Assembly (NCBI GenBank): GCA_001938485.1 | Contig: MQRK01196038.1 | Span: 1 to 51,345 of the forward strand | DNA from: Girardia tigrina | Lineage: Eukaryota | DNA length: 51,345 nucleotides | Direction: 5' to 3' | Part shown: one piece after another, positions 3,257 to 49,235 of the stretch | Position numbering within the stretch: the stretch's first letter is position 1 | Layout: every line of letters starts with the position of its first letter | Program-made: the position numbers and the translations under genes | The notes under the pieces: generated by a model | What the model saw: only the letters and a program-made list of their open reading frames with translations | Told to the model about the DNA's origin: nothing | Databases searched by the model: none

Positions 3257-3606
3257 ATATTAAGAACATTAATTAGGTTTTCTTGCGTAGCTCGTCATCG
3301 TTCTTGATTGATAATTTTAATAATATTCTTTAACGTCTTATTATTCAAACAAATTTAAATTACAATTTAATTATTATAAAAATAATTTATACTTTAAATT
3401 TGAAATAATTTTTATTTATTTTAAGAAAATATTAAAAAATTATTTATGAAATATTAGTTTAATTTTAAAGTGATTATTTAAATTTTAATACTTGATTAAA
3501 CAACCCGACGTTTTAAAATATTTAAGATATCAATCTTCCATCTGGGTGGGGGAAACACAATCCTAAAATAACATACAATAAATACCATTCAAAAATATTC
3601 CTCACA
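3257..3606 (-). mobile_element. Solo-LTR-like repeat, family B
   Basis: Ends TATTAAGAAC ... AATATTCCTCACA, core CCATCTGGGTGGG, flanked by CCAA/CCAA (3253-3256, 3607-3610). Confidence 0.7.
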
Positions 3607-8469: not shown

Positions 8470-8705
8470 CTATCGTCTCTAATCAAAAACCAAAGGTAAT
8501 CTTCCATCATTGCTGTATGCCACGCTCCTTGGTACCTTTTCTCCGTTGTTTGCATATCCTAGTGGAAGCGTTCCCCCTGTTCCTCGCTAAAGTCACCAAG
8601 GGTTTCCCGAAACCAATGCAGATGCGAATGCAAATAATAAAGTTTTACCGACATTCTGCAGCCCAGTTTTTCGAAGTGTTTGAGCAAATCACTGAACAGT
8701 AGTTG
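8470..8705 (-). pseudogene. Transposase C-terminal relic with GERFH motif (CMC/Chapaev3-like)
   Basis: LLKHFEKLGCRMSVKL..LHSHLHWFRETLGDFSEEQGERFH*DMQTTEKRYQGAWHTAMMEDYLWFL matches the LGC.MS.K.H.LHSH...SDEQGERFHQD...E.RYQG block; superfamily assignment is from recall. Confidence 0.75.
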
Positions 8706-9389
8706 GTACACTTCACTCTTCTTATTTCCCAAGAATTTAAATTTTTGACTTTGTTTAATTTTAATTTAAATTGGGCTCAAGTAAAGGCCAAAGACAATCA
8801 CAGCGCGAACAATACATTATCGAAATATTTAACTTTATGGTTGAATTAATTTTTTTATTGATACTAGTGCAATCCTCCTTTCTTGTAGAGACATAAATCT
8901 ATATTGAATGCCAGAAAACGAAGTCCTAACCATCGATGCTCATCATTAATTTGTATAATTGTTGTTGCAATGCATAGAACAAGTTAATTTATGTAATTCT
9001 ATACAATCCAGTGTTTTAATTCATCGTTATAATTAAACAAAAATGTAAGAAAATTTCCCTTCTATTTATTAAAACGAATAATTTCAGGAGGTAAATTCTT
9101 CCAGTACATTTTAATTGAATGTTTAATTGATTTATGTCTGTTCTTTCTAAAGTTTTTTTTCAATCAGTTTAAATCAAAATTAATTCAAAAAATTTCAAAG
9201 AAAATTAATGATAAATTTACGAGGAATTAAAATTGAAAATTAAAATTGTTATTTGGCTGAGACTAAATAATTGTAATTTTTATTAGCTTTTTAATTAATA
9301 AATTTATAAATGAGTGAACAATAAATATATATTTATATTTATATAAAAATAAATAAATACTGTTGTCTTTATTTGAATGTGTGACATAT

Positions 9390-9990: not shown

Positions 9991-11045
9991 CGTGGATCGT
10001 TCAATAAGTACCCGGCCTGACATTTATTTATTGCACAATAATTGCAGAATGTATGTAGGAATCATTTTTCAACATATTGTTCATTTCACTCCACACACTT
10101 CCGCTAACGAATAATCAACTCATAAAATCTATTTTTAAAAGATTATTCGGGGCATGCGTCGACAAAATCCTCCACGACATCCTTCAAACTGCCGAATTGT
10201 CGTAAAAAACCATAGTAACGTATTTTTTCTGCGGTTGCCGTGGAAGTTCTGTAATAGAATACGTTTATGGTGTTTCTCAGCGAAATCAATAAGAATAACA
10301 CATCTATGATTCCAGATAATAAATCTTTTGTCTCTTCAAAGATGGCTACTGTCCAGGAAACTTCCACTCTGCTGACTCACGCTTTGTTTCAGGTAAATAT
10401 ATATACTGAGGTTTCATCCTCCGTAATTAATTTTGCATGGAAAATCTTACTATGCAGGTCTCACAGTTTCAATTTGTTCTGACTACTCTCCAATCAGTTT
10501 GGCATCATTTCTCCGGTTAAGAAGCAGGGTAAAAATCTGGAGCACAGTTTGCTGATACTCATTAATTTTAATTAAGTGCAGATTGTACCAACACTGATGT
10601 TGAACTTCGTTTACAGCCTTGTCACGGTAATTCGACGTACTTTTTCGAACATTTTCTCCAATTTTTTATCAAGTATGTCACAGATTTCTTGTGGCCGACT
10701 ATTCTTGATTAAAAACGGAGGTTCAGCAACCTTCACACTGTCTGACCCAATATTTAAGAATTATCAGAGATAACGAATCATGGAAGTAAGTTGACTGCAA
10801 AATATCATAGATTTCTCTGCACATCTTCTTCTGCAAAACAGAAAACTTGATAACTCTGCAAGATTCAACTTTTAAAATTATCGCACTGACTAAAATTCAA
10901 AATGTCTCAAAAAACGTTTAATATGTTTGATAAAATAAAACAATTACTGAAATAAAACCTATATTAATTTATTTAATCACACACAAAAACTGAAATTTTC
11001 TAATTCATTTCCCCCTCAGGTCGGTTATTTATTGAAAACACCGCG
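9991..11045 (-). mobile_element. Decayed mariner element with imperfect ~30-bp TIRs
   Basis: TIRs CGTGGATCGTTCAATAAGTACCCGGCCTGA / TCAGGTCGGTTATTTATTGAAAACACCGCG; translation SRPQ...KLCSRFLPCFLT...LITEDETSVYIY..TKRES.EW with many stops. Confidence 0.8.
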
Positions 11046-11198: not shown

Positions 11199-11254
11199 GA
11201 CTTTTTGCCAGTAATGTATACAGAGACTGCTTTACTTTTAGAATATTAATTATA

Positions 11255-11660
11255 CATTCTTCCAATGATACTGCTCGGATTGCGGAACTCGACGTTAACC
11301 GGATCAAATGCCTCACCGGCACAACTATTGTACGGCTCTTCCACTTACCTTCTGGGAGACATTATCTTGGACAGTGAAAATCAATCGGCATATTCCAAAG
11401 AAGATATAGAAACAGCCATTCGTGGTTTTACAAGTCCGGTTGTAAACAAACACCCAACACGAAAAATCTTTGTTTCATCAGTATTATAAACGTTCACGTA
11501 AGTCTGGTTAAGAAGAGACATCATCGGTTCTCTCAAATCACCATACGAAGGACCTTATAAAGTGTTGCACCGATCCGAAGACAAAACAATATCGATTGAT
11601 CGTCTCAAACCAATGTTCACTTGTCAGGACACTCCTCTTCTTCCACAGGGGCATATGTAA
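11255..11660 (+). pseudogene. Ty3/Gypsy integrase C-terminal relic with putative PPT and LTR start
   Basis: LPMILLGLRNST....SPAQLLYG, PYEGPYKVL, ISIDRLKP, then AGGGG followed by TGT at ~11656. Confidence 0.85.
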
Positions 11661-11977
11661 AGTGACAACTTTACTTAAGCAATAAATTATTTTAATTCAA
11701 TTTTGTTGAATTAAAAATAATGATTTTTAATTTAATTTTTGTTAAATTAAAAATAATGATTTTTTTATCGATTGTTTAAATCGATAGATTTATTAATAAA
11801 CTTTTCAAAGAACTGATCTTTAAATTATTCAATATTTAAATAATACAAGAAGATTACAATAACTTATAATGTATAATTAATATTCTAAAAGTAAATCAGT
11901 CTAAATATTTACTGTTATTTATAACCCTTTCCTATACCAAATGAGAAAAGTTAAGTAGCCTCAAAGATTTTCAATCA

Positions 11978-17846: not shown

Positions 17847-18385
17847 GTATTAAGAACACCAATTTGACTTTTTATATTTTTATTTTAACAACAACTTTGA
17901 TTGTCCTTAAGACAATCTTTGTCTAAAGTTTCGTACATTTGCATTCTAAACTAAATTGATTAATGAATTAATTCTTATTATTTTTTAGCAAATGTGGAAA
18001 TAAATATTTTAATAAAATATTCACTCAAAACTTATTGGATAATAATTCAAATGATAATTAATTATTTAAAAAATATTAATTTGATTTATTTATTAAATAT
18101 TGTAAAAATTAATTATCTTATTTAAAATTTTAAAATTATTTGAAATTAGAAATAAATTTAAACATTACATATTTTTTAAGAATTACATATTTTTAAGAAT
18201 TAAAATAAATAATTAAAAATTAATTAACTTATTTAAAATTTTTAAATTATTTGAAATAAGAAATAAATTTAAATATTACATATTTTTTAAGAATTACATA
18301 TTTTTAAGAATTAAAATATTAGTCATCCATCTGGGTAGGAGAGACACAATTCCAAATCAACATACACATTCAAATATTCCTCACA
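17847..18385 (-). mobile_element. Solo-LTR-like repeat, family B, with internal ~110-bp tandem duplication
   Basis: Ends GTATTAAGAACACC ... AATATTCCTCACA, flanks TGAT/TGAT; strongly similar to 25447-25870 in inverted orientation. Confidence 0.75.
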
Positions 18386-18422
18386 TGATATATTTAAAAT
18401 AAAATATTTTTTGTCCAATTTA

Positions 18423-19390: not shown

Positions 19391-20232
19391 TGTGAAGGAC
19401 GGGCTCAATTTCAAAATTTTTGAAACAATTAATTTTTATAAAGAATTTCTAAAATAATTAAATATTTAAAATCAAAAGTTTTTAAAGTAATTTTAAGTAA
19501 AAAAATATATTTTTTCTTAATTAATTTAAAAAAGTTATTTTCGGAAATAATCAAATTTTATTTGTAGAGTAAAAAACTTAAATTGAAATTAATTCGGAAA
19601 TAATGGATTTTTAAATAATTAATTTAAAAGAAATATATAAAGACAAGGATAATTATGTTGTACTAATTTTAAAAGTTATTCTAAAAATTAAATATTAAGA
19701 TTTTTATCATTAATGTATCGTAATAATAATAAAAATTTGAATATTGTAAATTATTTTGTTGTTTTTAAATTGTATCTAAAATTTGTATGGTATTTAAAAT
19801 AATTGTAGGTAAAAAATGCTTTTAAACTGAAATATTGATAATTAAAAAAACATTAAAATCTTTATTAATGTTTCACAAAAAAAGAAATAACATTAAACTA
19901 ATTCTAAAATAATAAAAAATCATTATGGCTAATTTAGTAAAAATATGACTATAAAATTATATTGGTTTTAATTTATAAATAGTGGAATGTAAATTTTCAG
20001 AATAAATAGAATAAAAAATTTTCAATTTTAAATAACCTATCAGTTTATTTATATTTATAATTTCATATTTTTATATAAAAAATCTGGTCAAAAAGAAAAC
20101 AAAAAAGTTCCTCGACAAATATTTTTTTATTAAAAGAAAATTGTTAACTAAAAATTGTTTGAATAATTGTTAATTGTGTTATTAATAAATTTTTGGTGTT
20201 GATGAACTGTAATATTGATCAAGAACCCAACA
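19391..20232. mobile_element. Solo LTR, family A, copy 2 (inverted relative to copy 1)
   Basis: TGTGAAGGAC...AAGAACCCAACA; flanks ATCAC/TTCAC (4/5); homologous to 1069-2137. Confidence 0.8.
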
Positions 20233-20980: not shown

Positions 20981-21136
20981 ATCATCAGGTCACAATATGC
21001 TCTAAGTTAGCACACTAAGAGGAAGTATGACTAAAATAAATAACATTGGTGAATAAATATTATTGGTGAAATGTTTCATTCTTTAGGTATGTTTCCATAT
21101 AGTGTGTTAGCTTAGAACATTTTGTAACCTGATGAT
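20981..21136. repeat. Imperfect hairpin with ~55-bp arms
   Basis: ATCATCAGGTCACAATATGCTCTAAGTTAGCACACTA... pairs with ...TAGTGTGTTAGCTTAGAACATTTTGTAACCTGATGAT. Confidence 0.8.
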
Positions 21137-25446: not shown

Positions 25447-25870
25447 TGTGAGGAATATTTTGAATGTTTGATGTTTTGTGTTTGAATGTTTATGTTGATT
25501 TGCAATTGTGTCTCTCCTACCCAGATGGATGATTAATATTTTAATTATTATAATCTGAAAATATGTAATATTTAAATTTATTTTTAAATTCAAATAATGT
25601 TAAATTTTAAATAAGTTAATTAATTTTTTAAAATTTTTAATAAATAAATCAAATTAATAGTTTTAAAATAATTAATAATCATTTTAATTTCTATCATATA
25701 AGATTTGAGTAAATATTTTAATAAATTATTTATGTCTCCGTTTGCTAAAAATAATAAAAATTAATTCATTAATCAATTTAGTTTAGAATACAATCGTACG
25801 AAAGCTTTGACAAAGATTGTCTTAAGGACAATCAGAATTGTTGTGTGAATAAAAATATGAACTTATCAAA
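25447..25870 (+). mobile_element. Family B LTR-like copy, 3'-truncated
   Basis: Starts TGTGAGGAATATTTT, contains CTCCTACCCAGATGG and shares GACAAAGATTGTCTTAAGGACAATC with 17847-18385. Confidence 0.75.
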
Positions 25871-26339: not shown

Positions 26340-26780
26340 TCATGAAAATACTTTCAATAAAGTTGAAGAGGATGGCGTTTGGACATTGATTTTAGGATCA
26401 AAAGATTTGATCAACAATGCTTCAAACATCACCCTCTCCCAATAATTATCAAATTGTGAACACAAAATCTTAAAATTACTTACATCAACTTTACTATTCA
26501 AACAATTCTTATGTTGAGCAATATTGCTAACACTTTCTCTGCGATTATGTTCCTGAATCCGTTTACAGAGATGACGACAAGATATATACATATATATACA
26601 TAAAGTAAGCTAATACAAAGACTGGAAAAGGAGAGGTCAATTTCGCATGGACATGAAGTAGAAAAAGTACGAATCTTATTAGTTACCTGTCCCAGAAAGG
26701 GTATTGAAAAGTGGTGAGACAATTCTTTGTGCCTCTGGATGAACCAATTGGTACATATAGTTAGAAAATGCGTCTTAGTA
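26340..26780 (-). pseudogene. Penelope-like element linker plus GIY-YIG endonuclease relic
   Basis: FSIPFLGQVTNKIR; RHLCKRIQEH...SNIAQH...C...NFKIL...EALLIKSFDPKINVQ. Confidence 0.9.
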
Positions 26781-28624: not shown

Positions 28625-29321
28625 ATATATATAATATTTGTCTAAAAAGTGTGTGTGTGTGTCGGTCACGCTTTTCAATATGAAATTGCGAACGATCCTG
28701 ATTGAATCCATTTCAGGACGTAATAAATCTGGATAGATCACATCAATGTAATTTTATCAGTACAGCGCCTTTGTCGAAAGACACCCGGAAGCCGATGAAA
28801 TCGATGGAAAACGTACAAGTGTTAAATGGTTAAATTAACATTGATTTCGAATAATGACGATTTTGATGATTCCTACAAGATTTTCGTGAAAAATGATATG
28901 AAAATACTAATAAAATACTAATTTATTTGATAAATGACGATTTCTATAACTCATTTTTAATTATATTTCTAAAAATCAATTTACATAAATTTACAAAATT
29001 TCGTTGTCATCTGATTTACGGTTTGCCGGTCAAGCTCAAATTTTACTATGATCATATATATGCTGATAAAATGCCAAATGGTGGAGGAACTGTGAGTGAA
29101 TCCGCATAAAGTTGAGATAACACTGCATAATCCGAATCGAGACGGTTCTGTCTGTACATCCTCTTTGCCAAAAGGCACCGGGAGCCGACTTAATTGACAG
29201 ACTGTTAAATCAACACAGAATTCGAAACAATAAATAATATATTTTAATAATTACGATTTAAAAAGTAAAACAGAAACATTCAAAGTTGAAAATTCAGCTC
29301 ACCCAACGGGTATTTTTCTAG
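28625..29321 (+). mobile_element. Non-autonomous Helitron-like element (composite)
   Basis: 5' ATATTTGTCTAAAAAGTGTG..GTCGGTCAC and 3' ACCCAACGGGTATTTTT-CTAG; both ends homologous to 42900-43192. Confidence 0.65.
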
Positions 29322-30460: not shown

Positions 30461-31041
30461 AATTTTATTGGTACAAACATGTAGCAGCATTTTTAGTTGA
30501 TACTGTTACTCTCATTTATGTGTAGCCTCTTATAATTTAAGTGACTACCTAGGCCAATCAGAGCTGATAAAAATAAAAAAGTTTGTATGTCAGGAGTTTA
30601 ATGATAGCATTAACTATAGAATTTCAACCTCTACCCACAAACATACTATAATCGCAATAAATTGCATGAAGAAAAAAGCCTTTTGCATACAAACTTGCTT
30701 GTAGTTTTTCGATATTGACCGGCGTTTAACGATATCACATAAAACCAGGTAGCTATACACACACAAAATTGTAATGACATGAATGAGCAAAAATCAAACT
30801 AANGGTGTCTTATTGAGTACAGTGCGGTTCATAAGTAAGTTCGCACCCTAACAATTTCAATATATCTCAATAAAACGATGAAAAANTCTTTATTATTTTA
30901 ATTGCATTGTTTAAAATGATTAAAATTGATCATAATTAATAAACAGGCACTATTTGAGCATTCAAGTGTAGGCTCGATATTTTAGTGTTATGTTGCACTT
31001 TTTCTGATGATGCACTTTGTCCATTCTTTATATTAACTTGC

Positions 31042-34890: not shown

Positions 34891-36194
34891 GGAGACAGGG
34901 TTTCCATCCAAAAGACAATTATTCTTTTTTTAATTGTATAACCAAATTTTTAATTGTAAACCAAACATGTGAGGAGCGACAGTGTGAATACACAAAGTAT
35001 TACAATTTAAAGTTTAACTTATTCATTTTTGTCATCCTAATATTTAAAGATTGAATTTTCAGGCAAATATGGAAGAATCTGCATTTATATTAGATAATAT
35101 TTATTTATGCTATTTTCTAAAGGTTTCTTTAATAATAATAATTATTATTATTTAACTAGAAAAAAATCCGTCATATATGACGAGAGAACTGAACTTTTGT
35201 CTTTGAAAGTAATTAAGTGATATAAATCGTCATTTATCCAATAATTTAGTATTTTATAAGTATATTCATAAAATGTTTCACGAAATTCCTTGTAGGAAGC
35301 ATTTCGAGGAAGATTTCGTTGCATTTTGTGAAGTTGCAATTTGTGAATCTTTACTGTATATATATAATATTATTTATTATTTATATTCTATAAAAGTAAT
35401 ATAATATATCACAAATTAAAAGTAAAATTTCATTTTTCTATAGTTTCATAATAAAATGAAAATATTTTTTAATGTATTTATCGAATTTATTTATTGTAAA
35501 ATCAAAAAATATAATTCCAAATATTATCATAATGATAAAGGTTAATATGTAAGATGTGAGGGCAATAATGATTCTGTTGGAGGAAGAATGTGGAGAGGAC
35601 TCTTTGGACTCTTTGATATTATCCGATGATTTTATTATTATATCTCTAATTATTAATTATTTCCATGTTTTATTTTAGTAGTCTCATTAAAGGAACATCA
35701 TTCCATATTTTTATAATTACGTAGGTGCCTTCACCATCAAATATTGGATCATAAATAGGAATATTATTGATATAATTATTATGCTTTATAAAATAATTTA
35801 AAAATCATGTTGTTTTTAATTAATAAATCTAAATTTTTTTAAATATAATTTTTAATAATTGAAGACGCAAATTTGGCAGTGGAGGTAAAAAATTTGTACT
35901 TTCAGAACGGTTAATTGGTATCCTTGTGGGAACTCCTTATTAGTTGTGTTAGATGTTCTTCGAACATCCTCAGAATTGTTATGAAAAGTTGATTCCAACA
36001 ACATTTCTAAATATTATTATATTACAATGTTTAAAAAAAGGATGAAAAATAATATTCAAACAAACTTATTTTTCTTAAGAAACAATTTGTTTTATAAATC
36101 TTAAACCAGTATAATTAAAATATTTATAAAATTAATATTTGATTTTATTTTCATTTTATAAATTTCACCTTTAACATTTTAAATAACGCTAACG

Positions 36195-36268
36195 TACGTG
36201 GTGCGGATAAAATATCCTTAAACTCTTATAGAAACAAAAATAATTAATTTATGAAATTTTTAGAATTG

Positions 36269-36321
<53 letters not shown>

Positions 36322-37210
36322 TAAAAATTACCAAGTTTGTTTAATTGTTTTAATGCTAAATAGTGTTATATTTTACAATCTTTCAAAAAATCTACGAGCA
36401 AGTGGAATTTTGCTGCGTTATTCGCTTTTTACTTTTGAGGAATACTGAAAAGAAGAATATAGTGCGTCACCATCAGGAAAGATATGTAATTGAATTACTA
36501 TACAATATAATTGAATTATGTACAATGGCACTATTAACAACTTGATAAGAGATAATTCTTATGGCAGGAGCAATTTCTTGACAAAGAAAGAATTAAGCGC
36601 TTTCAAAAAATTCCGGATGAAAAATTGGAAATTGTATCGATTATTGTAAAAGAAGAGAGATGAATAACGCAGAGAGAGCTGTCAAACTTACTTAATATGA
36701 GCAAGAAGACTGTGCAGATTATGCTGGGATATTTTGTAGTTAGAAAATTGTGAAGTCAATTTGTCCCACGCTTCCTGACATCCAAGATGCGAGAAAAACG
36801 AATACAAGCATGTCAAGACAACATTGGTCTGTTTGATGCTCATGAACGAATTGAATTAAAGAATATTATAACGGAGTGTTAGACTCCATTGAATTTGTAT
36901 ATTTATATGCAGTAAGTGGGAGTTTCGTGAAAGAGTATTTCGAGAGGAAAAACACCAAAAATGCTCCGTTCGGAGACATCTCATTAAAAATGCCACATGC
37001 TTACTGTGTTTTGAGATGCACAAAAGGGTGATCAAACTCAACTTTATATCGGGAATTCTCGATTTCGATTTCTACTGCGCTCTGCATCATGATCTGAAAC
37101 AATCGCAAATTAAACCAAGGAACCAAATACCGTATCTCTAGCACGACAACGCATATGTCCACACAGCTCACAAACAGTGGACGCAATCGCTAAAAAAGCG
37201 GTACTTGACG
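36195..37210 (+). mobile_element. Decayed mariner element interrupted by a (TA)n tract
   Basis: CVIRFLLL, RKL*SQFVPRFLT, NIITE and HDNAYVHT motifs; TACGTGGTGCGGATAAAA TIR-like start. Confidence 0.8.
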
Positions 37211-37324
37211 TTTGAACGCGGAGAATTTAAAAATAAAATGAATAGTATGAAACTCGTTGTGATCTCTCATTGTGGCCGAGTCAGAATATAAATGATTAAT
37301 ACAATCTACAGGGTGACGCAAAAT

Positions 37325-37651
37325 GTTTTTGTTTATTAAAATATCAATTACCAATTGCCTTTTCATTAAGGATTGTACATTTGACTAAAAAATAAATTTG
37401 TCTTAGGGACAGCTGGATATGACCACATTTATGCTTTTAGATCCAAAGCTCAACTTGAGTAGGTTTAGTCCATTATTTGGAGACTGATGGTCACGCTGTG
37501 TGCCCTTCGAATAATAATCTAATTATGGTTTTGGTCATAATGGTTCGTTTTTACATCTCGGTATCCTCTACAATCATAATTTCATCAAAAATTACCATGA
37601 TTCAGAAAAGGAAACTTGATATTTTCAATACATCAGAGATAATTATTTGTA
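37325..37651. repeat. 327-bp inverted duplicate of the right flank (39201-39527) of the adjacent transposon
   Basis: No mismatch seen on reading; the ORF track shows identical 60-aa ORFs at 37477-37659(+) and 39193-39375(-). Preceded by TA and a 16-nt TIR tip at 37309-37324. Confidence 0.95.
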
Positions 37652-39200
37652 CAGGGTGACGCAAAATAAACTCCAAGGTACTTTTCTATTGGATCTTTTT
37701 ATCCACCTACTTTTTTATAGGTAAAGTTTTTAGAATCCTGAGCGTCGCCAAATTCTGATGGTATATAAAATAAATCAAAAAAATCAAAAAAAACATCAAA
37801 AATTAAAGAAAAATTTGTGAGACGAAAAATTTAACAAGCTTTTTATTTCATAAAGCATAACAACAATTAATTATTGAATTTCAACTTGTCCTCCATCTCT
37901 AAGAAAACATTCATGCAAACGTCGTTTGTAGTCGGCCACAACGCGTTCATGAAGTACGCGGTCTCCATGGATTTCATTGGCAACTCCTTCAATCGCTGCT
38001 CTCAACTCTTCGAATGTCTTGGACGTTGTTCGCGATGATAAATTCGACCTTTCATATAGCCCCACAACCAATAGTCACATGCTGCAAGATCTAGCGAGCG
38101 AGGTGGCCATGTAACTGGAGCAGGATGCGCCCGTGTTCTGCGACCTATCCATCGATTTGGAAACTGTTGACCCAACAATTCAAGAAAATCTCCAAGAATG
38201 TGTGGCGGAGCGCCGTCATGCTGCTCAATGAGAGAATTGAGATTCGGCCAAGTTTGAAGCTCTGGAATAACGTGCTCTTCATACAATTCAGTCATCCAAC
38301 GACCATTGATTCCGCGCTCATTTCCTTGTCACTCCCAAAAGTATGGGCCAACAACACCTTCAAACCAATGAGGATTTTCATCGGCCCACATAATCCAGTC
38401 TTGACGATTGACGCTTCCGTCCAAATGAAAGTGGGCTTCATCCGTAAAAAGAAGATTGTTGAGTCTGTTTGCATCTTCATCCAATCGATCCAATTCGGTT
38501 CGAGCAAACTAAATTCGAGCGGCATAGTCGGTCTCCTCCAAGGCATGAGCCATTTGCCAATTATAGGGACGCATCTGTAAGTCTTCTTTCAAAATTCGCT
38601 GCAAGCTTCTTTGTGGCATACGAACTGTTCCGTGATCGTCTTCTTCGCTGTCAGTGTCGCCAGTTGAAACAAGTGGATTGCGTCGAGTTGATAGATGAGG
38701 ATTTGCAGTAAAGGCTTCACGGACGTCTTCAATGGCTTCTTTGGTGCGAATACGTTTTGGCTTGTTCTTTCCGCGCTTTCCATGGACACTTCCAGTCACT
38801 GGAAAATCGTCAATCCATTTTACAATGACTCTTTTTTCCGGAATTTTTGCTCGACCATTTCTTGTTTCACTTCGGAATCGAGTTTTTAGCTGCGCATAAT
38901 CATAGGCTTCCTCAATAAGCATCAAAACGAGATGAGCTTTTTACTGATCCGTATACGTCATTTGAATCAAATTTTAGGGTAAAACTTTCTAAGTTCATTT
39001 TAAAAAACGCTTGTTAAATTTTTCGTCTCAAATTTTTTTTTAATTTTTGATGTTTTTTTTGATTTTTTTGATTTATTTTATATACCATCAGAATTTGGCG
39101 ACGCTCAGGATTCTAAAAATGTATACTTTACCTATAAAAAAGTAAGTGGATAAAAATATCCAATAGAAAAGTACCTTGGAGTTTATTTTGCGTCACCCTG
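37652..39200 (-). mobile_element. Tc1/mariner-superfamily element, rosa/VS (DD41D)-like, ~190-200-bp TIRs, flanked by TA
   Basis: TIRs begin CAGGGTGACGCAAAATAAACTCC; TA at 37650-37651 and 39201-39202; transposase inside. Confidence 0.95.
37871..38961 (-). pseudogene. Transposase pseudogene with D..D46D catalytic triad
   Basis: ATG at 38961; FTDEAHFHLDG, QHDGAPPH, WIGR, WPPRSLDLAACDYWLWGYMK. In-frame TAA 38941-38943, TAG 38509-38511 and TGA 38329-38331; frameshift near 38020. Confidence 0.93.
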
Positions 39201-41978
39201 TACAAATAATTATCTCTGATGTATTGAAAATATCAAGTTTCCTTTTCTGAATCATGGTAATTTTTGATGAAATTATGATTGTAGAGGATACCGAGATGTA
39301 AAAACGAACCATTATGACCAAAACCATAATTAGATTATTATTCGAAGGGCACACAGCGTGACCATCAGTCTCCAAATAATGGACTAAACCTACTCAAGTT
39401 GAGCTTTGGATCTAAAAGCATAAATGTGGTCATATCCAGCTGTCCCTAAGACAAATTTATTTTTTAGTCAAATGTACAATCCTTAATGAAAAGGCAATTG
39501 GTAATTGATATTTTAATAAACAAAAACGTTGATAATCGGGTTGACAGTGTTTGTTTACGGGTTTATCTACGAAGACATTTTATAAACAAGCCACATTTAT
39601 TTATAAACAATAAACAATATAAAGAAAGCAAACTAAAATTCTTTTTCTAACTGAATAAAATTATGAATAATTTTCTTCTGAAAACTGTCTAAAATATAAT
39701 TATGTTTATAAAAAATAAGAATTAATAAAATAATTTATTTCTTCAAGATTTTATTTATTCCCTTCATCTTTGGTGCACCTTTGTTTCTTGACGGCGAACC
39801 CCGGGGTCATTCTGGTGCTCGTTACGAGGGGGTTGTTTATTTTTTTAAATATTTCGGAATTAATCTGAAAAAGACGGATCGGAGCCGTGAGTTGAATAAT
39901 GTGGCTCAATTCTTATCAAGATCAATGAAATTATTTTCGATTATTTATAATTATTTATATTTATAAATATTTATTTAATATATTTTAATGTCTTATAAAA
40001 TAATATATATTATTCTAGATAATATTATACATTATATTATTTATTGCTTAATTTACTACTTTTTATTGTATTTAACGAAAAAAAGATATATTTAATTAAA
40101 GTAGATATAGAATGAAATATTAATTAAAGTAATAAAAACGGAACTCTAAAAAATAATTAGTCAAATTTTATGCATTAATTATTATATATTTTATTAATAA
40201 CTTATTAAGGAAACTTAATTAAAAATCTTTATCAATTTTGAATAAACGGAATTTATTTTATTGATTAATTAATTATCTGACAAAAAATCAATAATAATAA
40301 TATATATTAAATGAATACGAAAAATAATATTTAAATATATAATTTTGAGTTTTAATTAGAAAAAAATTATATAATGAATTTTTAAATCTTTCACCTGGTG
40401 GAATTTGATTTTAAATATTACAAAATAATGGATTATTAATTAAAACCAAAAAATTTTTACGTAAATTTTTTTATTTTTTTTGTAAACAATTTTGCTTCAT
40501 AGGAATAATAATTAAATTAAAATATAATTACACATCAAAATATCTTTATTCTATATTTTTGTATTTTTATAACTAATGACTTATATTATAAATCTATATT
40601 ATTGTATTCGTTTCGACAAGTTTACACGATTTTAGTGCACCAGATATTAAAGGAATAAATTCAATTCCATCTATTTTACTTTCAAAAAGACATAATTTAA
40701 GACAAAATAATTACATGTGTAACAAGAGCTTTTTTATATTACCACGTTTTTAACGTCACTAGAAATATGATTAATTGCAAAAATATTTTATATTATTTGA
40801 ACGTTGACTACTTGTTTTCTAAAAGATAAGTATTTTTAAACAGAATTATATCAATTTTTAAGTTTTAAATTTAAAATGGTTTAGACATTGGAATTATGGT
40901 TATCAGAATAAATTCGATGTAAAATATAATTAAAATGCACAAGAGTGATTAGATGCTGCTGCTGCATTAAATTTAAATAAAAAAATAGATTTCAGTATTT
41001 TGGCCGGTTTTTTGATGCCTGTACTGTGTAATGCTATGCTTTTCCAGACTCAAAAGAATTTTCCAAAAAAATAATTGAGTTTACACACCTCTACTGTCCT
41101 CTATTATTCTATACACTTAATATATATTTTTCACTTTTGTTTCTTAATTTTTGCACTGTTTAGAATTTTTATAATCATTTTTTTCGACTATATTGTCCTT
41201 AAAATTTCAGTTTTCTATTTTAAAATATTTAATCACTCTATTCTCACTAAACAATCACAAAATACACAAATTTTTACGAAATATTTAAATAAATTAGATA
41301 TCAACTGTTTACATAAACTATTAAAATCCATATACTTTCAACAACGCCATTTATCTATGTTCTTCTTCAATTCCTATATATTTAAATTGACCGGTATAAG
41401 CGTTAACTAAAATTGATAAAATAAAATGATGAATTAAAATTAATTTATATCGTAAGATATAATCTGATTTGAGCTATTAATTATTATTAATTAACAACAA
41501 CGGAGATTCATATTTGATCAAAACAAAGATTCAAATCATTTTATTATACAAAATTTATTCATATAAATTGGGGTCTACGACAAAAACGCCGTGGACAAAA
41601 CGCCGCGGACAAAAATGGCTTAAATTAACCGACAAATTATAGAAATTTTAAATGGAGCACAATCTTTGAGTAGATAGAATGTTAATATTTTGTTTTTTAA
41701 AAAAATTTTACAAAAGTCAAAATATCTTTAAATAATAAAAATAAAAATCCATATAAAAATATTATTTTCGGAATTATTTTTATACTAATGTGGAAAAATA
41801 TTTAGTATTTATTTAATTTATTACTATTTTTAAAATTTTAGTATTAATTTATAACATTAAAAAAATAAAAATAAAAATAAAATAAATACAATAATTTATT
41901 TATAATTTATAAATATTAGAAATTAGATTAAATTATTAAATTTTTTCAATTATTTTTACGAAATAATGTTAATTAAAA

Positions 41979-42239
41979 AATATTATTAATAAAAATAAAT
42001 TTTTATAAAACCAACCACGTTTTTCAAGCATTACCAATGAAATAAAAAGAGGAAAATAATTTTTTTTCTAGACATGTGCGAAATTTTATACCTAACCCAA
42101 AAACGTGGGGCGGATTTCTGAATTACTGCTATTAGTAACTGCTATTTCCTCTTTACTGCTTTTTTTTCTCTTTTTAGTGCATTGGTAATGCTTGAAATAC
42201 GTGGTTGTTTTTATAAAAATTTTTTTTATTAATAATATT
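41979..42239. repeat. MITE-like foldback with ~60-80-bp inverted arms
   Basis: TTTTATAAAACCAACCACGTTTTTCAAGCATTACCAATG (42001-42039) versus CATTGGTAATGCTTGAAATACGTGGTTGTTTTTATAAAA (42180-42218), extending on both sides. Confidence 0.85.
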
Positions 42240-42899
42240 ATTTAACTATTTTTAGTTATCATTTAGGAATTCAAATCTTTCGATTGATTTCGAATAACAG
42301 AAATGATAATAAAACCANNNNNNNNNNNNNNNNNNNNNNNNNNNNNNNNNNNNNNNNNNNNNNNNNNAAATAACAAAGTTTTATTTTAATAAAAGCAAGT
42401 TTTATTTCAAAATAATTTTTAAACCTAATTTTAATACTTCTACACTTAATTATCACTTGATTTTAACAATATTTGTTCAATTTATTAATTTTTTCCGTAC
42501 ATCCGTAAAGTAAATGTTTTAAAATATTGTATTGTCATCGGAAGCAAGCCTGTATAAAAAAAGTCAGCTCAATTGGTTGACTGAAAGTGGTCGAAAAATC
42601 AATCGCAAGATTTGTTCCAGACAGACAGACAAGAAACCAAGCTAAGAAAAACGTGGTAAAATATTTCCCGTTTTAGGCCAAAACCTTCAGAAAAAACCTT
42701 TGAGGTAAAACACGGATTCCTGGAAAAAGAAAAAATGTTCCTTTATAAGAGATCAATTGATATATCCAATTTTGACTATCACCTTGAGAATTAAAATACT
42801 AGAGAGTGCTAAATGTATCGACAGGAACAAATGACCGGAAGGGACTCTGTTTGTCAGAGTCTTCTTTAAAAGAACTAATTTTAGTTGATGATGGGTACC

Positions 42900-43192
42900 A
42901 ATTATATCAAATATTTGTCTAAAAAGTGTGTTTGTTTGTCGGTCACTCTATGATCAAAATGTGAAATTGCGAAGGAACCCTAGTGAATCCAAGTAATGAC
43001 ATGGTCAATCTAGATAGCCCGAATCGAGACGGTACTGTCTGTGAAGCGCCATCACCGAAAGAGGCTTGATACCGACTTAATTGCCCGACTGTTATACCAA
43101 CACAGAATTCGAAACAATAAATAATAAAATTTAATAATTACTATTTAAAAATTAAAACAGCTTACCTGTCAAATATGACGGGTTTTTTCTAG
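42900..43192 (+). mobile_element. Non-autonomous Helitron-like element
   Basis: 3' hairpin ACCTGTCA-AATA-TGACGGGT, then CTAG (43189-43192) followed by T; 5' microsatellite-like GTGTGTTTGTTTGTC; 5' boundary approximate. Confidence 0.7.
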
Positions 43193-43807: not shown

Positions 43808-44270
43808 ATGTAGTGCGCTCAATAAGTAGCGAGCCGAACATAGAAATAATATTCTGATTCCAATGAATTTTCTTTCATAACAAGCAAGTTATTAAGGTAA
43901 TATTTGTGATATTTGTTTTAATCTATTATTTTTGTTTAGGTTAGAGAGCGCATAAATTCGAAAATGTCATTGGAAAACGTCCAATATCAAAGCGTTATTC
44001 GTTTCTTGTTAATGAAAGGGAAAAGCCGGGAAGAAATATTCTAGGAGCTTAGTTCTGTTTATGGCGAAGAGTCCATCCATATCTACTGTCAAACGATAGT
44101 TCAACCATTTTCGAGATGGTCGTACGTCTGTTTTGGATGAAGAAAAGTCAGGTAGGCCACGAGAAATTGGCGAAGAAATAGCGAAAAAAACAACTAATTG
44201 AAGAACAAAGATCGCATCTGCAAGAAATGTACTAACTTTTACAACTGGCGTTTTGTTGCCTTCAGCTTTC
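43808..44270 (+). pseudogene. Mariner 5' relic (TIR plus HTH)
   Basis: GTGCGCTCAATAAGTAGCGAGCC TIR-like; MSLENVQYQSVIRFLLMKGKS...VYGE...STVKR*FNHFRDGRTSVLDEEKSGRP from 43964. Confidence 0.9.
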
Positions 44271-44483: not shown

Positions 44484-44862
44484 CTATTAAGAACACTAAT
44501 TGGATTTTTAATAAATTTATTCAACTTGAAGCGCCAATAGGACAATTTTCCATAAAACTTTTGTAGTTAATCATCATTCTTGATTAATAAATTTTATTCT
44601 ATTTCTCAAAGTCTTATTATTTAAACAAGTTGAAATTACAATTTATTTACAATTCGATTAAAAGATAATTTATATTATTAATTAAAAAATATTTTAGATA
44701 TATTTAAATTAAGGCTCAGTTATTTAAATTTTAAAATTGAATAAATAATTCAACGTTTTGAAATATTTAAAATATCAATCTTCCATCTGGGTGGGAGAAA
44801 CACTATCCTTAAACAACAAAAGAAACAACATACAATAAGCAAAATTCAAAATATTCCTCACA
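44484..44862 (-). mobile_element. Solo-LTR-like repeat, family B
   Basis: CTATTAAGAACAC ... CCATCTGGGTGGGAGAAACAC ... AAAATATTCCTCACA; flanks AAAA/AAAA (low complexity). Confidence 0.7.
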
Positions 44863-44933
44863 AAAAAAATTTTTTCGATGGTCTGTAGTCATTCATAGAT
44901 TAATTGATATTTATTTAGCTGATATAAATATTT

Positions 44934-45117
44934 TGTCATCTAAACACGCTCAATAGGGTTTTCGAGAGACCCGTTTGCACATTAATCTTAGGATCTAAAT
45001 ATCTGATATATAGTGCTTTATTTTTTTATATAAAGCACTTTATATCAGATCTTTAGATCCTAAGATTAATGTGCAAACGGGTCTCTCGAAAACCCAATTG
45101 AGCGTGTTTAGATGACA
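44934..45117. repeat. Near-perfect 184-bp palindrome (88-bp arms, 8-nt loop)
   Basis: TGTCATCTAAACACGCTCAA...GTGCTTTAT / ATAAAGCAC...TTGAGCGTGTTTAGATGACA; 3 mismatches counted by eye. Confidence 0.95.
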
Positions 45118-45379
45118 TAATAATCCATTGATGACATAATCACTGCTTGCATATATAAGCAGATTTAAAATTCATTTTTCTTGATATAAATATTATTTTT
45201 GGAATTAATATTTGAGGTTTAATATTGTAAATATATGTGTTTGATTTAATTATTATTTTATCTATGTGATGCGTTCAATTGTTACTCGATCTGACCAGGA
45301 AAACTTGTTTAGAGACTTGAAACATTTTGCAAGAACGACTACGTCAATCTAGGTTTTTATCATTGCTTTTGTTTCACTT

Positions 45380-47379: not shown

Positions 47380-49235
47380 TAATTTGTTTAACCAACATTG
47401 AATTTGACGAACTATGAACAATGTGGAATCCAACATTCTGTCCACACATTTTCCAGCGTCTTACCAGCTCCAAAAATGCATTAAAGTCGATTCATCACTT
47501 CTTTGAATTCTGCTTTTGGGATGGAATATCTTTCTCGTAGATGTCCTTTCAGATGAAGGAACAAATACAAATCACTCAGAGCTAAGTCTAGTATATATGG
47601 AAAGTATGGGAGGAGTTTAAATCCATATCCTCAATTTTCTCGCAGAGAATGAAAATGCACCTGATTATATTGTAAAATTATCATGGAGGAAATAGAAAAT
47701 ACATTTTGTCATTTGTGAATTTCCACTCCGACTCCTGTTTAGTGTCTGGTCGATACAGAGAGCGCGGGCTTTCTAACTGTCGCAAAGTCACTGCCTGTGA
47801 CGAATTGAGTCTGTTTTCACACATTTCACTTGTAAGAAAGCGTGGAGCGAATCGTGAAGAATGTTAAAGATCATTATTGTGTGATGCGTCTGTCAAATTT
47901 GACAATATTCTTCAATTTTTATTTTATGTTTTCGACAATGTCCAACAGTCGTCTTGTACTTTTCTCATCAAAACATTCTGTCTACCATGCCTAAATTATG
48001 TAATTTATCAATAACTAGTGGTTTTAGATGTGTTTTCAATATGATATAAGGACTGAGTGCGAAAAATATTACAAACTTTAAATCTCTATAACTCCAACAT
48101 AAATTCACAAATTACAAAAAACTAATTTAGGAGGCTGTTGTTTGAATAAATCGGAATAAAATTCATTTTTAAATTTGATTTTTCATGAATATGTCGTCAG
48201 AAACAGGAAGTCACGAATTAATTATTCGTTTATTTCAAGAAAATCCACAATCAAATCAGAAAACAGTTTCCAACATTATTAAAAACTTCAATGAAGACTT
48301 GAACGTTTTTAGAAAAATTAGTTCGGGAAGAAGAAATGATTTTTTGTGTACACAGAATCTGAAGAAAGTAAAGGATCTGTTAGAGAGAAATCCTCGTCTA
48401 TCAAATTTAAAACTGGTTGTAAAGCCAAATTGTAGCTAGAAAACAGTTCGGAATGTGGGTTTAAAACGTATAAAAATTCAAACAGTACCAGACCGGAACA
48501 CTAACAAGAATGTAAAGGTGCAGGAGCGAGCAAGAAAGATGAAATCTGGTTTTCTTGCGAAGAAAAATTGTTGCATTATGGGTGATGAGACTTATATGCC
48601 CTGCGAGTTTTCCCAGCTACCCGGACAAGAATTTTACTCTGCAACTAAGAGAGGAGGAGTTGTAGAAAAATTTAGAAACAAGAAAAAATCTAAGTTTCCC
48701 AAAATATTTCTTGTTTAGCTGGAAAAGGAGTAAAGACTTTTTTACATTTGGCACAATAAACACAGAAGTCTATGTGAAGGAGTGCTTGCAAAAGCGTTTA
48801 TTCATATGTCAGCACCGAAGTCTAAATCGAAAAATATTGTGCCTTGTAAAAAGGAAATTAAAGACGATAAACAAGAGGGCACAGATAATTGCAGATTTTC
48901 GGAACAAGTGGAATAATGCAGCCAAATACGTGACAGAAACTATAATTGCAAGTCTAATAGCAGACATTCCGGAAAAGCTCGCAGAATTTATTAAAAAAAT
49001 AAATAATCTTTCTTAGCTTACAAAAAATTATTTTGAATTAAACACATTTTTCAAAACAGTCGGTATTTTTTCAATCAAATATATGGTTTTGAAGATAGAT
49101 GATTTTAAAGTTAGTAATATTTTTTGCATTCAGTTCTTACATTCATCAACTCGCCAATAATGTCGTTTGCTGGCAACTTCTTTAAAACAAGAAACTTAAT
49201 TTAATCACGAAATTCCACGGGAGAGTACTTGATTA
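47380..49235 (-). mobile_element. Decayed mariner split by a nested insertion at 48049-49137
   Basis: IKFLVLKK...IIGELMN (49141-49200) | FRHGRQNV, SRFAPRFLTSEM, PYFPYILDLALSDLYLFLHLK, LVRRWKMC (47420-48000); outer boundaries approximate. Confidence 0.8.
48049..49137 (+). mobile_element. ITmD37E-like Tc1/mariner element, internally deleted
   Basis: TA flanks (48047-48048, 49138-49139); ~50-bp TIRs AGGACTGAGTGCGAAAAATATTAC / GTAATATTTTTTGCATTCAGTTCT; CIMGDETY..EFSQLPGQEFY...KFPK, GTINTEVYVKECLQKRL. The D37E segment itself is missing. Confidence 0.8.

Follow-up and report, generated by a model that had tools for sequence, protein, structure and literature searches.

The analyzed window, i.e. 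all 51,345 nucleotides of contig MQRK01196038.1 from Girardia tigrina, contains a dead, decayed Tc1/mariner-type transposon whose left terminal inverted repeat (TIR) is separated from a 16-nt TIR tip by an inverted copy of the DNA flanking its right end. The most probable reading of this arrangement is a scar left by a single DNA-repair event, and not a newly formed mobile element. The chances are about even that it is a real templated insertion in the dead element, primed by the TIR and made by homologous pairing first and blunt end-joining afterwards. If a variant triggered by excision of the element is included, a TIR-primed templated insertion becomes probable.

Structure of the locus

The locus consists, from left to right, of TA, TIR nucleotides 1 to 16, the inverted flank copy, the left TIR, a transposase on the minus strand, the right TIR and TA plus flank. 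The individual features are as follows:

37307..37308, no strand: left target-site duplication TA, read from the sequence; probably the original insertion junction
37309..37324, plus strand: TIR nt 1-16, the outer tip, with the same sequence as 37652-37667 and as 39185-39200 in reverse complement; putatively the original left tip, severed from its TIR
37325..37651, minus strand: right-flank copy in inverted orientation, 327 nt with TA at 37650-37651 (325 nt without TA), the exact reverse complement of 39201-39527, with a blunt, non-homologous left junction
37652..37844, plus strand: present left TIR, 193 nt; nt 1-16 putatively copied from the right TIR, with the homologous switch anywhere in nt 17-43
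37871..38961, minus strand: dead DD46D transposase pseudogene (46 residues between D2 and D3), with stops, a deletion and a frameshift relative to its intact relative P0002 (381 aa)
39004..39200, minus strand: right TIR, 197 nt; putative repair template
39201..39527, plus strand: TA and native right flank, the putative donor of the copy, running on past 39528 without a TIR tip

The 16-nt tip (CAGGGTGACGCAAAAT) was found at three exact sites in the window (37309 and 37652 on the plus strand, 39185-39200 on the minus strand), each with TA on its outside, and every other site has at least 4 mismatches to it. The direct repeat shared by the outer and inner tips is exactly TA plus these 16 nucleotides, an 18-mer with an expected chance count of 4e-7 in the window. 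The full element measures 1,549 bp and lies inside the outer tip and the inverted copy. Since the first 43 nucleotides of the two TIRs are also identical, the exact inverted run reaches 370 nt (37325-37694 versus 39158-39527), and it could be extended outward by 0 bases. It is the longest of the 16 exact non-microsatellite repeats of at least 25 nt in the window. The next-longest (81 nt) belongs to the same TIR pair, and the longest beyond the element spans 67 nt. The anatomy described in a first-pass annotation of this DNA, with TA, tip, inverted flank and full element, thus agrees with the sequence base for base (0 of 327 differences), and the inverted arms of about 520 bp proposed there were measured as 520 and 524 nt with a spacer of 1,159 nt.

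Excision of 37325-37667 in silico leaves an ordinary element bordered by TA at either end. The net change is therefore a 343-nt insertion templated from 39185-39527 with zero loss. The junction 37324|37325 is free of N, the nearest N runs being at 30886 and 42318. Within the window the 327-bp segment has a single parent copy. No Pfam match above the cut-off was obtained for the six frames of 39201-40000, no Rfam match in 36000-41000 and no plasmid match for the captured segment. A search of prokaryotic genome contigs for further copies with DNA context returned none (13 pattern matches, 0 confirmed; 0 in a second search), which is uninformative for this eukaryote.

Age of the flank copy

The two flank copies differ at 0 of 327 sites, which sets a 95% upper bound of 0.9% on their divergence, although the assembler could have removed one or two differences. 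The TIR pair (~193 bp), as had been recognized before, differs by both substitutions and indels. Six events were counted (4 substitutions, one 6-nt indel and one 2-nt indel), the first of them at TIR nt 44. This contrast between 0/327 and 6/193 (Fisher test, p=0.0025) shows that the flank was copied after the TIRs had diverged. At the rate seen in the TIRs, 0 differences are expected with a probability of 3e-5 in 327 nt, 0.26 in 43 nt and 0.60 in 16 nt. The identity of the first 43 TIR nucleotides is therefore unremarkable and unable to locate the switch.

The first-pass annotation had placed the duplication after the element itself. This holds for the divergence of the TIRs, whereas the identity of the copies does not date them relative to the insertion, since transposition of a dead copy in trans is possible and the asymmetry of the TIRs could be native to the family.

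Proposed mechanism of the templated insertion

If the event took place in genomic DNA, a break or fork stall may have occurred in the left TIR of the old, decayed DD46D element at nt 16|17. The element-side 3' end would then have paired with its own right TIR, by strand invasion or fold-back. The substrate for such pairing comprises 27 identical nucleotides beside the break point and ~97% identity over 190 nt. Synthesis would have run outward through nt 16 to 1 of the right TIR, TA and 325 nt of flank, after which the new strand would have come free and undergone blunt joining with the 16-nt tip left behind. The product of these steps would be a 343-nt inverted templated insertion with no loss, and transposase would not be required.

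The two junctions differ in character. At 37324|37325, 0 nt of exact microhomology were found (AAT versus AAC), which makes this a poor start for an invasion. The other junction sits within 45 nt of identity (TA plus 43 nt) and is hidden in the TIR homology. The simplest order is therefore homology first, with the left TIR pairing onto the right TIR, followed by blunt end-joining. Thus, the earlier proposal of a template switch during gap repair is retained insofar as it has the right flank copied recently, in inverted orientation and by a repair-type process, with one TIR-guided junction, while its order of switches is revised in view of the 0 nt of microhomology at 37324|37325. In the homology-first order the 16-nt tip, previously regarded as an extra piece, is probably the original left tip.

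The edge of the copied tract falls exactly at the tip boundary on the left and at no feature on the right, which argues for the right copy as donor and for copying from right to left. Copying from left to right was rejected, as it needs a stop exactly at the tip boundary as well as loss of the right tip. Of the 97 TAAACA sites in the window, the densest cluster, with 5 in 110 nt, lies across 39527|39528, which is weak evidence from a motif chosen post hoc. Two further candidates were dismissed. A hairpin at the donor end (39517-39558) is present as a possible terminator but is no better than in shuffles (z=-0.26 and -0.36). A snap-back inverted repeat over the junction, of the type expected for synthesis-dependent microhomology-mediated end joining, comprises 5 bp and is matched by 197 of 1,970 simulated stop points (10%), which is not significant.

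End-joining is the closing step of aborted synthesis-dependent strand annealing (SDSA). The homology-first order corresponds to the pattern of one-sided invasion and aborted SDSA named in PMC9299229, or to its fold-back equivalent. In yeast, a break near an inverted repeat was described to drive fold-back inverted duplications (PMC10622511).

Several points weigh against this reading. It depends on one assembled copy of one allele in a window that reads as the gapped draft of a repeat-rich eukaryote, with seven N runs (two with 50 Ns, one each with 117 and 131, and three single Ns), a distribution of gaps consistent with short-read scaffolding. The bluntness of the junction has no diagnostic value, as 705 of 1,970 simulated stop points (36%) also yield 0 nt. 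Re-copying of the whole element in the opposite orientation, or a non-homologous jump first, gives the same product, and the sequence alone cannot order the steps. In addition, the breakpoints of Pack-TIRs, i.e. TIR elements with a recent copy of nearby DNA between their ends, are skewed to element interiors and not to termini (PMC8277862).

Alternative explanations

An assembly or library artefact is unlikely, albeit the most serious of the alternatives. The junction could be chimeric, e.g. from whole-genome amplification, or a mis-walked graph could have re-used one 370-nt unitig, made up of flank and TIR tip, on both sides. Amplification chimeras are a recognized cause of false inversions (PMC11226609), the assembly is a draft with 50-N gaps and single Ns, and the 370-nt run is exact and far exceeds any other exact repeat in the window, as re-use of one unitig would also predict. 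The TA runs that enter a gap are 35 and 39 nt long, and the word used for assembly may fall short of the 45 nt of the shared tip. With a word of about 35-39 nt this tip would collapse, which would leave a single novel junction to explain. However, this junction carries no N, although other joins in the assembly do, and has no overlap by which a merger could have come about. The interiors of the two TIRs came out of the assembly as different sequences, and any chimera would face competition from the normal path between flank and TIR, for which better coverage and a fit to the insert sizes are expected. Quite unlikely, too, is a copy made by two switches in which transposase excised the element and gap repair on the sister chromatid was aborted, or in which the non-homologous jump preceded the homologous one; re-copying of the whole element in inverted orientation belongs here. 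Abortive gap repair predicts a non-homologous junction near the terminus (PMC8277862), as found here, and a transposase such as that of the intact close relative P0002 (9 member sequences) might act in trans. P0002 is not tied to this genome, though, and this reading needs ~1.9 kb of extra resynthesis or, at a distance of 2.2 kb, an invasion guided by 0 nt of homology. Moreover, cleavage of a Tc1/mariner element would not leave a remnant of 16 nt, ISY100 being cut 2 nt inside (PMC2170065), and 91 of 97 primate Pack-TIRs arose after insertion (PMC8277862).

Very improbable is an alternative (sister-chromatid) transposition or sister fusion, in which a chromatid's left end was fused with the right flank of its sister, after which the fusion broke and was repaired onto the 16-nt stub. 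It yields the exact mirror junction of flank, TA and TIR, and inverted duplications from alternative transposition are on record for maize Ac (10.1101/2020.01.07.897926). The cases cited there use two elements, a new target-site duplication (TSD) and 0.3-3.2 Mb of duplicated sequence, and at least three coordinated steps would be required. Such an event places its novel junction at the terminus with a new TSD, whereas here it lies at TIR nt 16|17 and the donor end is without TA. Just as improbable is the absence of any duplication. In this case the element would have native TIRs of ~536 bp, of the type that combines inverted with direct repeats (IR/DR type), minus the right outer tip, or it would have jumped into the central TA of a palindromic miniature inverted-repeat transposable element (MITE) of its own family. 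TIRs of more than 460 bp are known from DD40-41D relatives (PMC5490172), and fold-back elements are present in the window (44929-45122). In contrast, the outer parts are identical while the inner parts differ (p=0.0025), the inner "repeat" bears a full cleavage end and TA, and the right boundary has no tip remnant (7/16 mismatches); any loss, moreover, would need to stop precisely at nt 16|17. The fold-back repeat at 44929-45122 has 93-nt arms (96% complementary) and an 8-nt spacer; further fold-back or MITE-like inverted repeats occur at 41970-42248, 20981-21136 and 11224-11902.

The TIR-primed templated insertion, if real, is a clean, base-resolved record of one TIR templating the repair of its partner and pulling in host DNA outward. 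It predicts a genomic signature of a short tip, the reverse complement of the opposite flank and a full TIR, the frequency of which would bear on whether TIR homology drives flank capture. An animal-wide survey of Pack-TIRs excluded such cases by design (TE, i.e. transposable element, within 100 bp of the parent), and its supplements may hold similar ones (PMC8277862). The single dead copy alone changes little. Its pairing arms grew from ~193 to ~520 bp and the computed duplex energy changed from -201 to -594 kcal/mol; longer arms could matter for local instability, or as double-stranded RNA if transcribed.

Candidate composite element and possible route to long TIRs

The 1,892-bp unit 37309-39200, suggested by the first-pass annotation as a candidate composite element, has TA and the correct tip at both ends. 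The case for a new composite element is nevertheless weak, because the 16-nt tip is shorter than known Tc1/mariner binding sites, an inner end competes with it, the right arm is tipless and the transposase is dead. In Mos1 the transposase linker contacts nt 15-18 and the first helix-turn-helix contacts G22 and the region near nt 26 (PMC4505599), while ISY100 transposase protects almost all of its ~24-bp inverted repeat (PMC2170065); both are analogies from other families. The competing intact left end lies 343 bp inside the outer tip. Contrary to these points, the motif that is repeated in the native TIR (tip nt 5-16) lies wholly inside the 16-nt tip. Further copies of 37309-39200 at other TA sites were found neither in the 51-kb window nor in prokaryotic contigs.

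The inner repeat of tip nt 5-16 is located at TIR nt 168-179 with 2 mismatches (37656-37667 versus 37819-37830) and is mirrored in the right TIR; 13 of 2,000 shuffles match equally well, the motif having been picked after inspection. A weaker one with 3 mismatches was observed at TIR nt 91. The inner repeats suggest more than one predicted binding site per end. They give no support to the idea of a fossil of an old tip, which was dropped since TA-CAGG is absent upstream.

The ~520-bp arms are not functional TIRs, because the right arm has no outer tip. It ends without tip or TA, and the best match to the reversed tip in 39500-39700 has 7/16 mismatches. A snapshot of a route to long TIRs, as had been suggested, is thus not supported, and the arms differ from the IR/DR type (Sleeping Beauty type). 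The latter is defined by outer and inner transposase-binding repeats in both arms, each ending in a cleavage site (PMC8151067). It is very unlikely that the locus is a half-built IR/DR terminus, with tip, 325-bp host spacer and full TIR on the left and the matching spacer on the right. If so, the 16-nt tip may still serve as an end, and the unit of 1,892 bp might be mobile in trans already. One more 18-nt conversion would then give symmetric TIRs of ~536 bp with outer and inner repeats, and Tc1/mariner elements could acquire long IR/DR TIRs by growing outward into the DNA of the host.

Transposase and family assignment

Typical for Tc1/mariner (ITm) elements, the transposon has TIRs with a TA duplication outside and a DDE/D transposase with an N-terminal helix-turn-helix. 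Read through its stops, the open reading frame (P0001) could be aligned to the intact 381-aa P0002 (E=1.5e-196) with 16 mismatches in 314 aligned residues, 3 stops among them. Stops were found at codons 7, 151 and 211, a frameshift near 38030 and an in-frame deletion of 18 aa in the catalytic domain between the first and second D. At E<=0.001, 87 relatives were obtained, many of which are labelled Tc3-like transposase or bear DDE_3/DUF4817. A profile search matched the SETMAR catalytic domain (E=4.5e-6); Pfam gave no match for P0001 and a sub-threshold match for P0002.

The D2-D3 spacing is 46 residues in P0001-P0005, compared to 41 in DD41D elements and 41-42 in the nearest proteins. Among 235 proteins, a spacing of 41 was found in 100, of 42 in 55, of 46 in 12, of 47 in 10 and another one in 10, with 48 unresolved. 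In a tree of 64 of the 235 proteins, which contained neither a named reference such as Crmar2 nor an outgroup, 10 DD46D rows including the element form a clade (100/98) among DD41-42D rows; two further DD46D rows are placed elsewhere. The clade comprises the window sequence 37871-38961 (minus strand), P0002-P0009 and P0089, P0006 being a named Aphelenchoides besseyi protein. A separate DD47D group is also visible in the tree. The spacing of the neighbours and the description in PMC5490172 suggest that the element is a relative of rosa/Visitor DD41D. In the open-access literature, no paper was found on a DD46D mariner or on the spacing variants DD45D, DD48D and DD42D; the primary Visitor paper may describe such variants.

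Genomic context

The window is AT-rich (17-44% GC per kb), has 8 open reading frames of at least 100 aa and is full of decayed transposons. A decayed mariner relic adjoins the element on the left (36360 to at least 37082, plus strand). Its relative P0236 (73% over the query) matches Mos1, while a direct PDB search with the relic yielded weak unrelated matches only. More relics of this group are located at 10298-10869 (minus strand), 43973-44177 (plus strand) and 47684-48046 with 49147-49227 (both minus strand). The last one is interrupted at 48044-49142 by a TIR element of 1.1 kb whose ITm-like open reading frame is broken, apparently a nested insertion. In an empty-site test, the tail of the left neighbour and the right flank were compared with other relics, and 9 of 9 DNA comparisons were at shuffle level. 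The TIR of the left relic was not found in 4 of 4 comparisons, which leaves this test uninformative.

Dispersed repeats of 70-87% identity were found at 1069-2137 and 19391-20232, 17871-18401 and 25456-25861, 3287-3606 and 44563-44862, and 28626-29273 and 42903-43160. Short recent direct duplications are exact at 50560-50626/50937-51003 (67 nt) and 25281-25323/25405-25447 (43 nt), and 96% identical over 105 nt at 18103-18207/18214-18318. The repeat 21309-21436/22915-23084 restarts right after the 131-N gap, and both places adjoin a TA run or gap. The segment 34806-35054, without match in a PDB search, may be a NOP56-like host exon. The segments 10143-10376, 11250-11489, 26340-26609 and 8559-8765, without Pfam match above the cut-off, we take by eye to resemble a Gypsy integrase, a GIY-YIG domain and a DNA-transposon fragment.

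Comparison with known systems

Single-copy Pack-TIRs form by transposition-independent gap filling, and 160 of 281 lie within 15 kb of their parent (Tan et al. 2021, PMC8277862). Like these recent 100-5,000-bp copies, the locus is single-copy in the window, has its parent less than 5 kb away and would be explained by a gap-filling template switch for which transposase is not needed. The captured 327 bp fall within this size range and have at least 10 bp of terminus on each side (the 16-nt tip and the full right end), and the parent is 100% identical at the same length, where at least 90% at 80-120% length is asked for. A unique top genomic hit is required as well; within the 51-kb window the parent is the only hit. 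However, the parent abuts the right TIR at 39200|39201, and a filter excludes parents with a TE within 100 bp. The locus therefore resembles a Pack-TIR in the way it works, without being classified as a member. It also differs in that one switch uses long TIR homology, compared to microhomology of 1-36 nt in Pack-TIRs (at one or both breakpoints in 190 of 281), and in that TIR nt 1-16 and TA are duplicated, the breakpoint is terminal and no element sequence is lost.

For Galileo, repair of a TIR break from the other TIR with an over-long tract was proposed to explain inward TIR growth (Marzo et al. 2013, PMC3573991). In both systems the tract passes the TIR edge and lengthens the inverted repeat. 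The Galileo tracts run inward, take up internal sequence and keep both true ends, whereas the tract at this locus extends outward into the DNA of the host and the tip is present on one side only; Galileo belongs to the P superfamily and not to Tc1/mariner.

Mutator-like transposable elements (MULEs) with a solo extra TIR were characterized as mostly "death on birth" and were almost never amplified (Ferguson and Jiang 2012, PMC3310237). They share three termini and the asymmetry with the present locus. Their extra TIR is long (similarity of at least 100 bp) and their inner TIR is without TSD, while the present locus has an extra part of 16 nt, an inner end still bordered by TA and a spacer formed by the flank of the element itself. 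The composite insertions of maize Ac likewise have TE ends and flank inversely duplicated and fused at aborted synthesis ends, with double-stranded RNA as a potential product on transcription, but are made by transposase from two elements with a new TSD over kb to Mb (10.1101/2020.01.07.897926), none of which was seen here.

The TA target, the CAGGGTG-type tip and the DDD triad are shared with rosa/Visitor DD41D and the LTIR DD40-41D elements (PMC5490172). Apart from the 46 residues between D2 and D3, the element differs in its TIR of ~193 bp, which lies between the 27-32 bp of rosa and the more than 460 bp of LTIR elements; the latter also exceed 2.3 kb, compared to 1,549 bp here.

A paper describing this outward anatomy was not found in the open-access literature, which misses much of the older P-element and Tc1 work. 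The locus is a tidy variant of a known repair outcome, and its outward tract from TIR to TIR differs from the inward one of Galileo.

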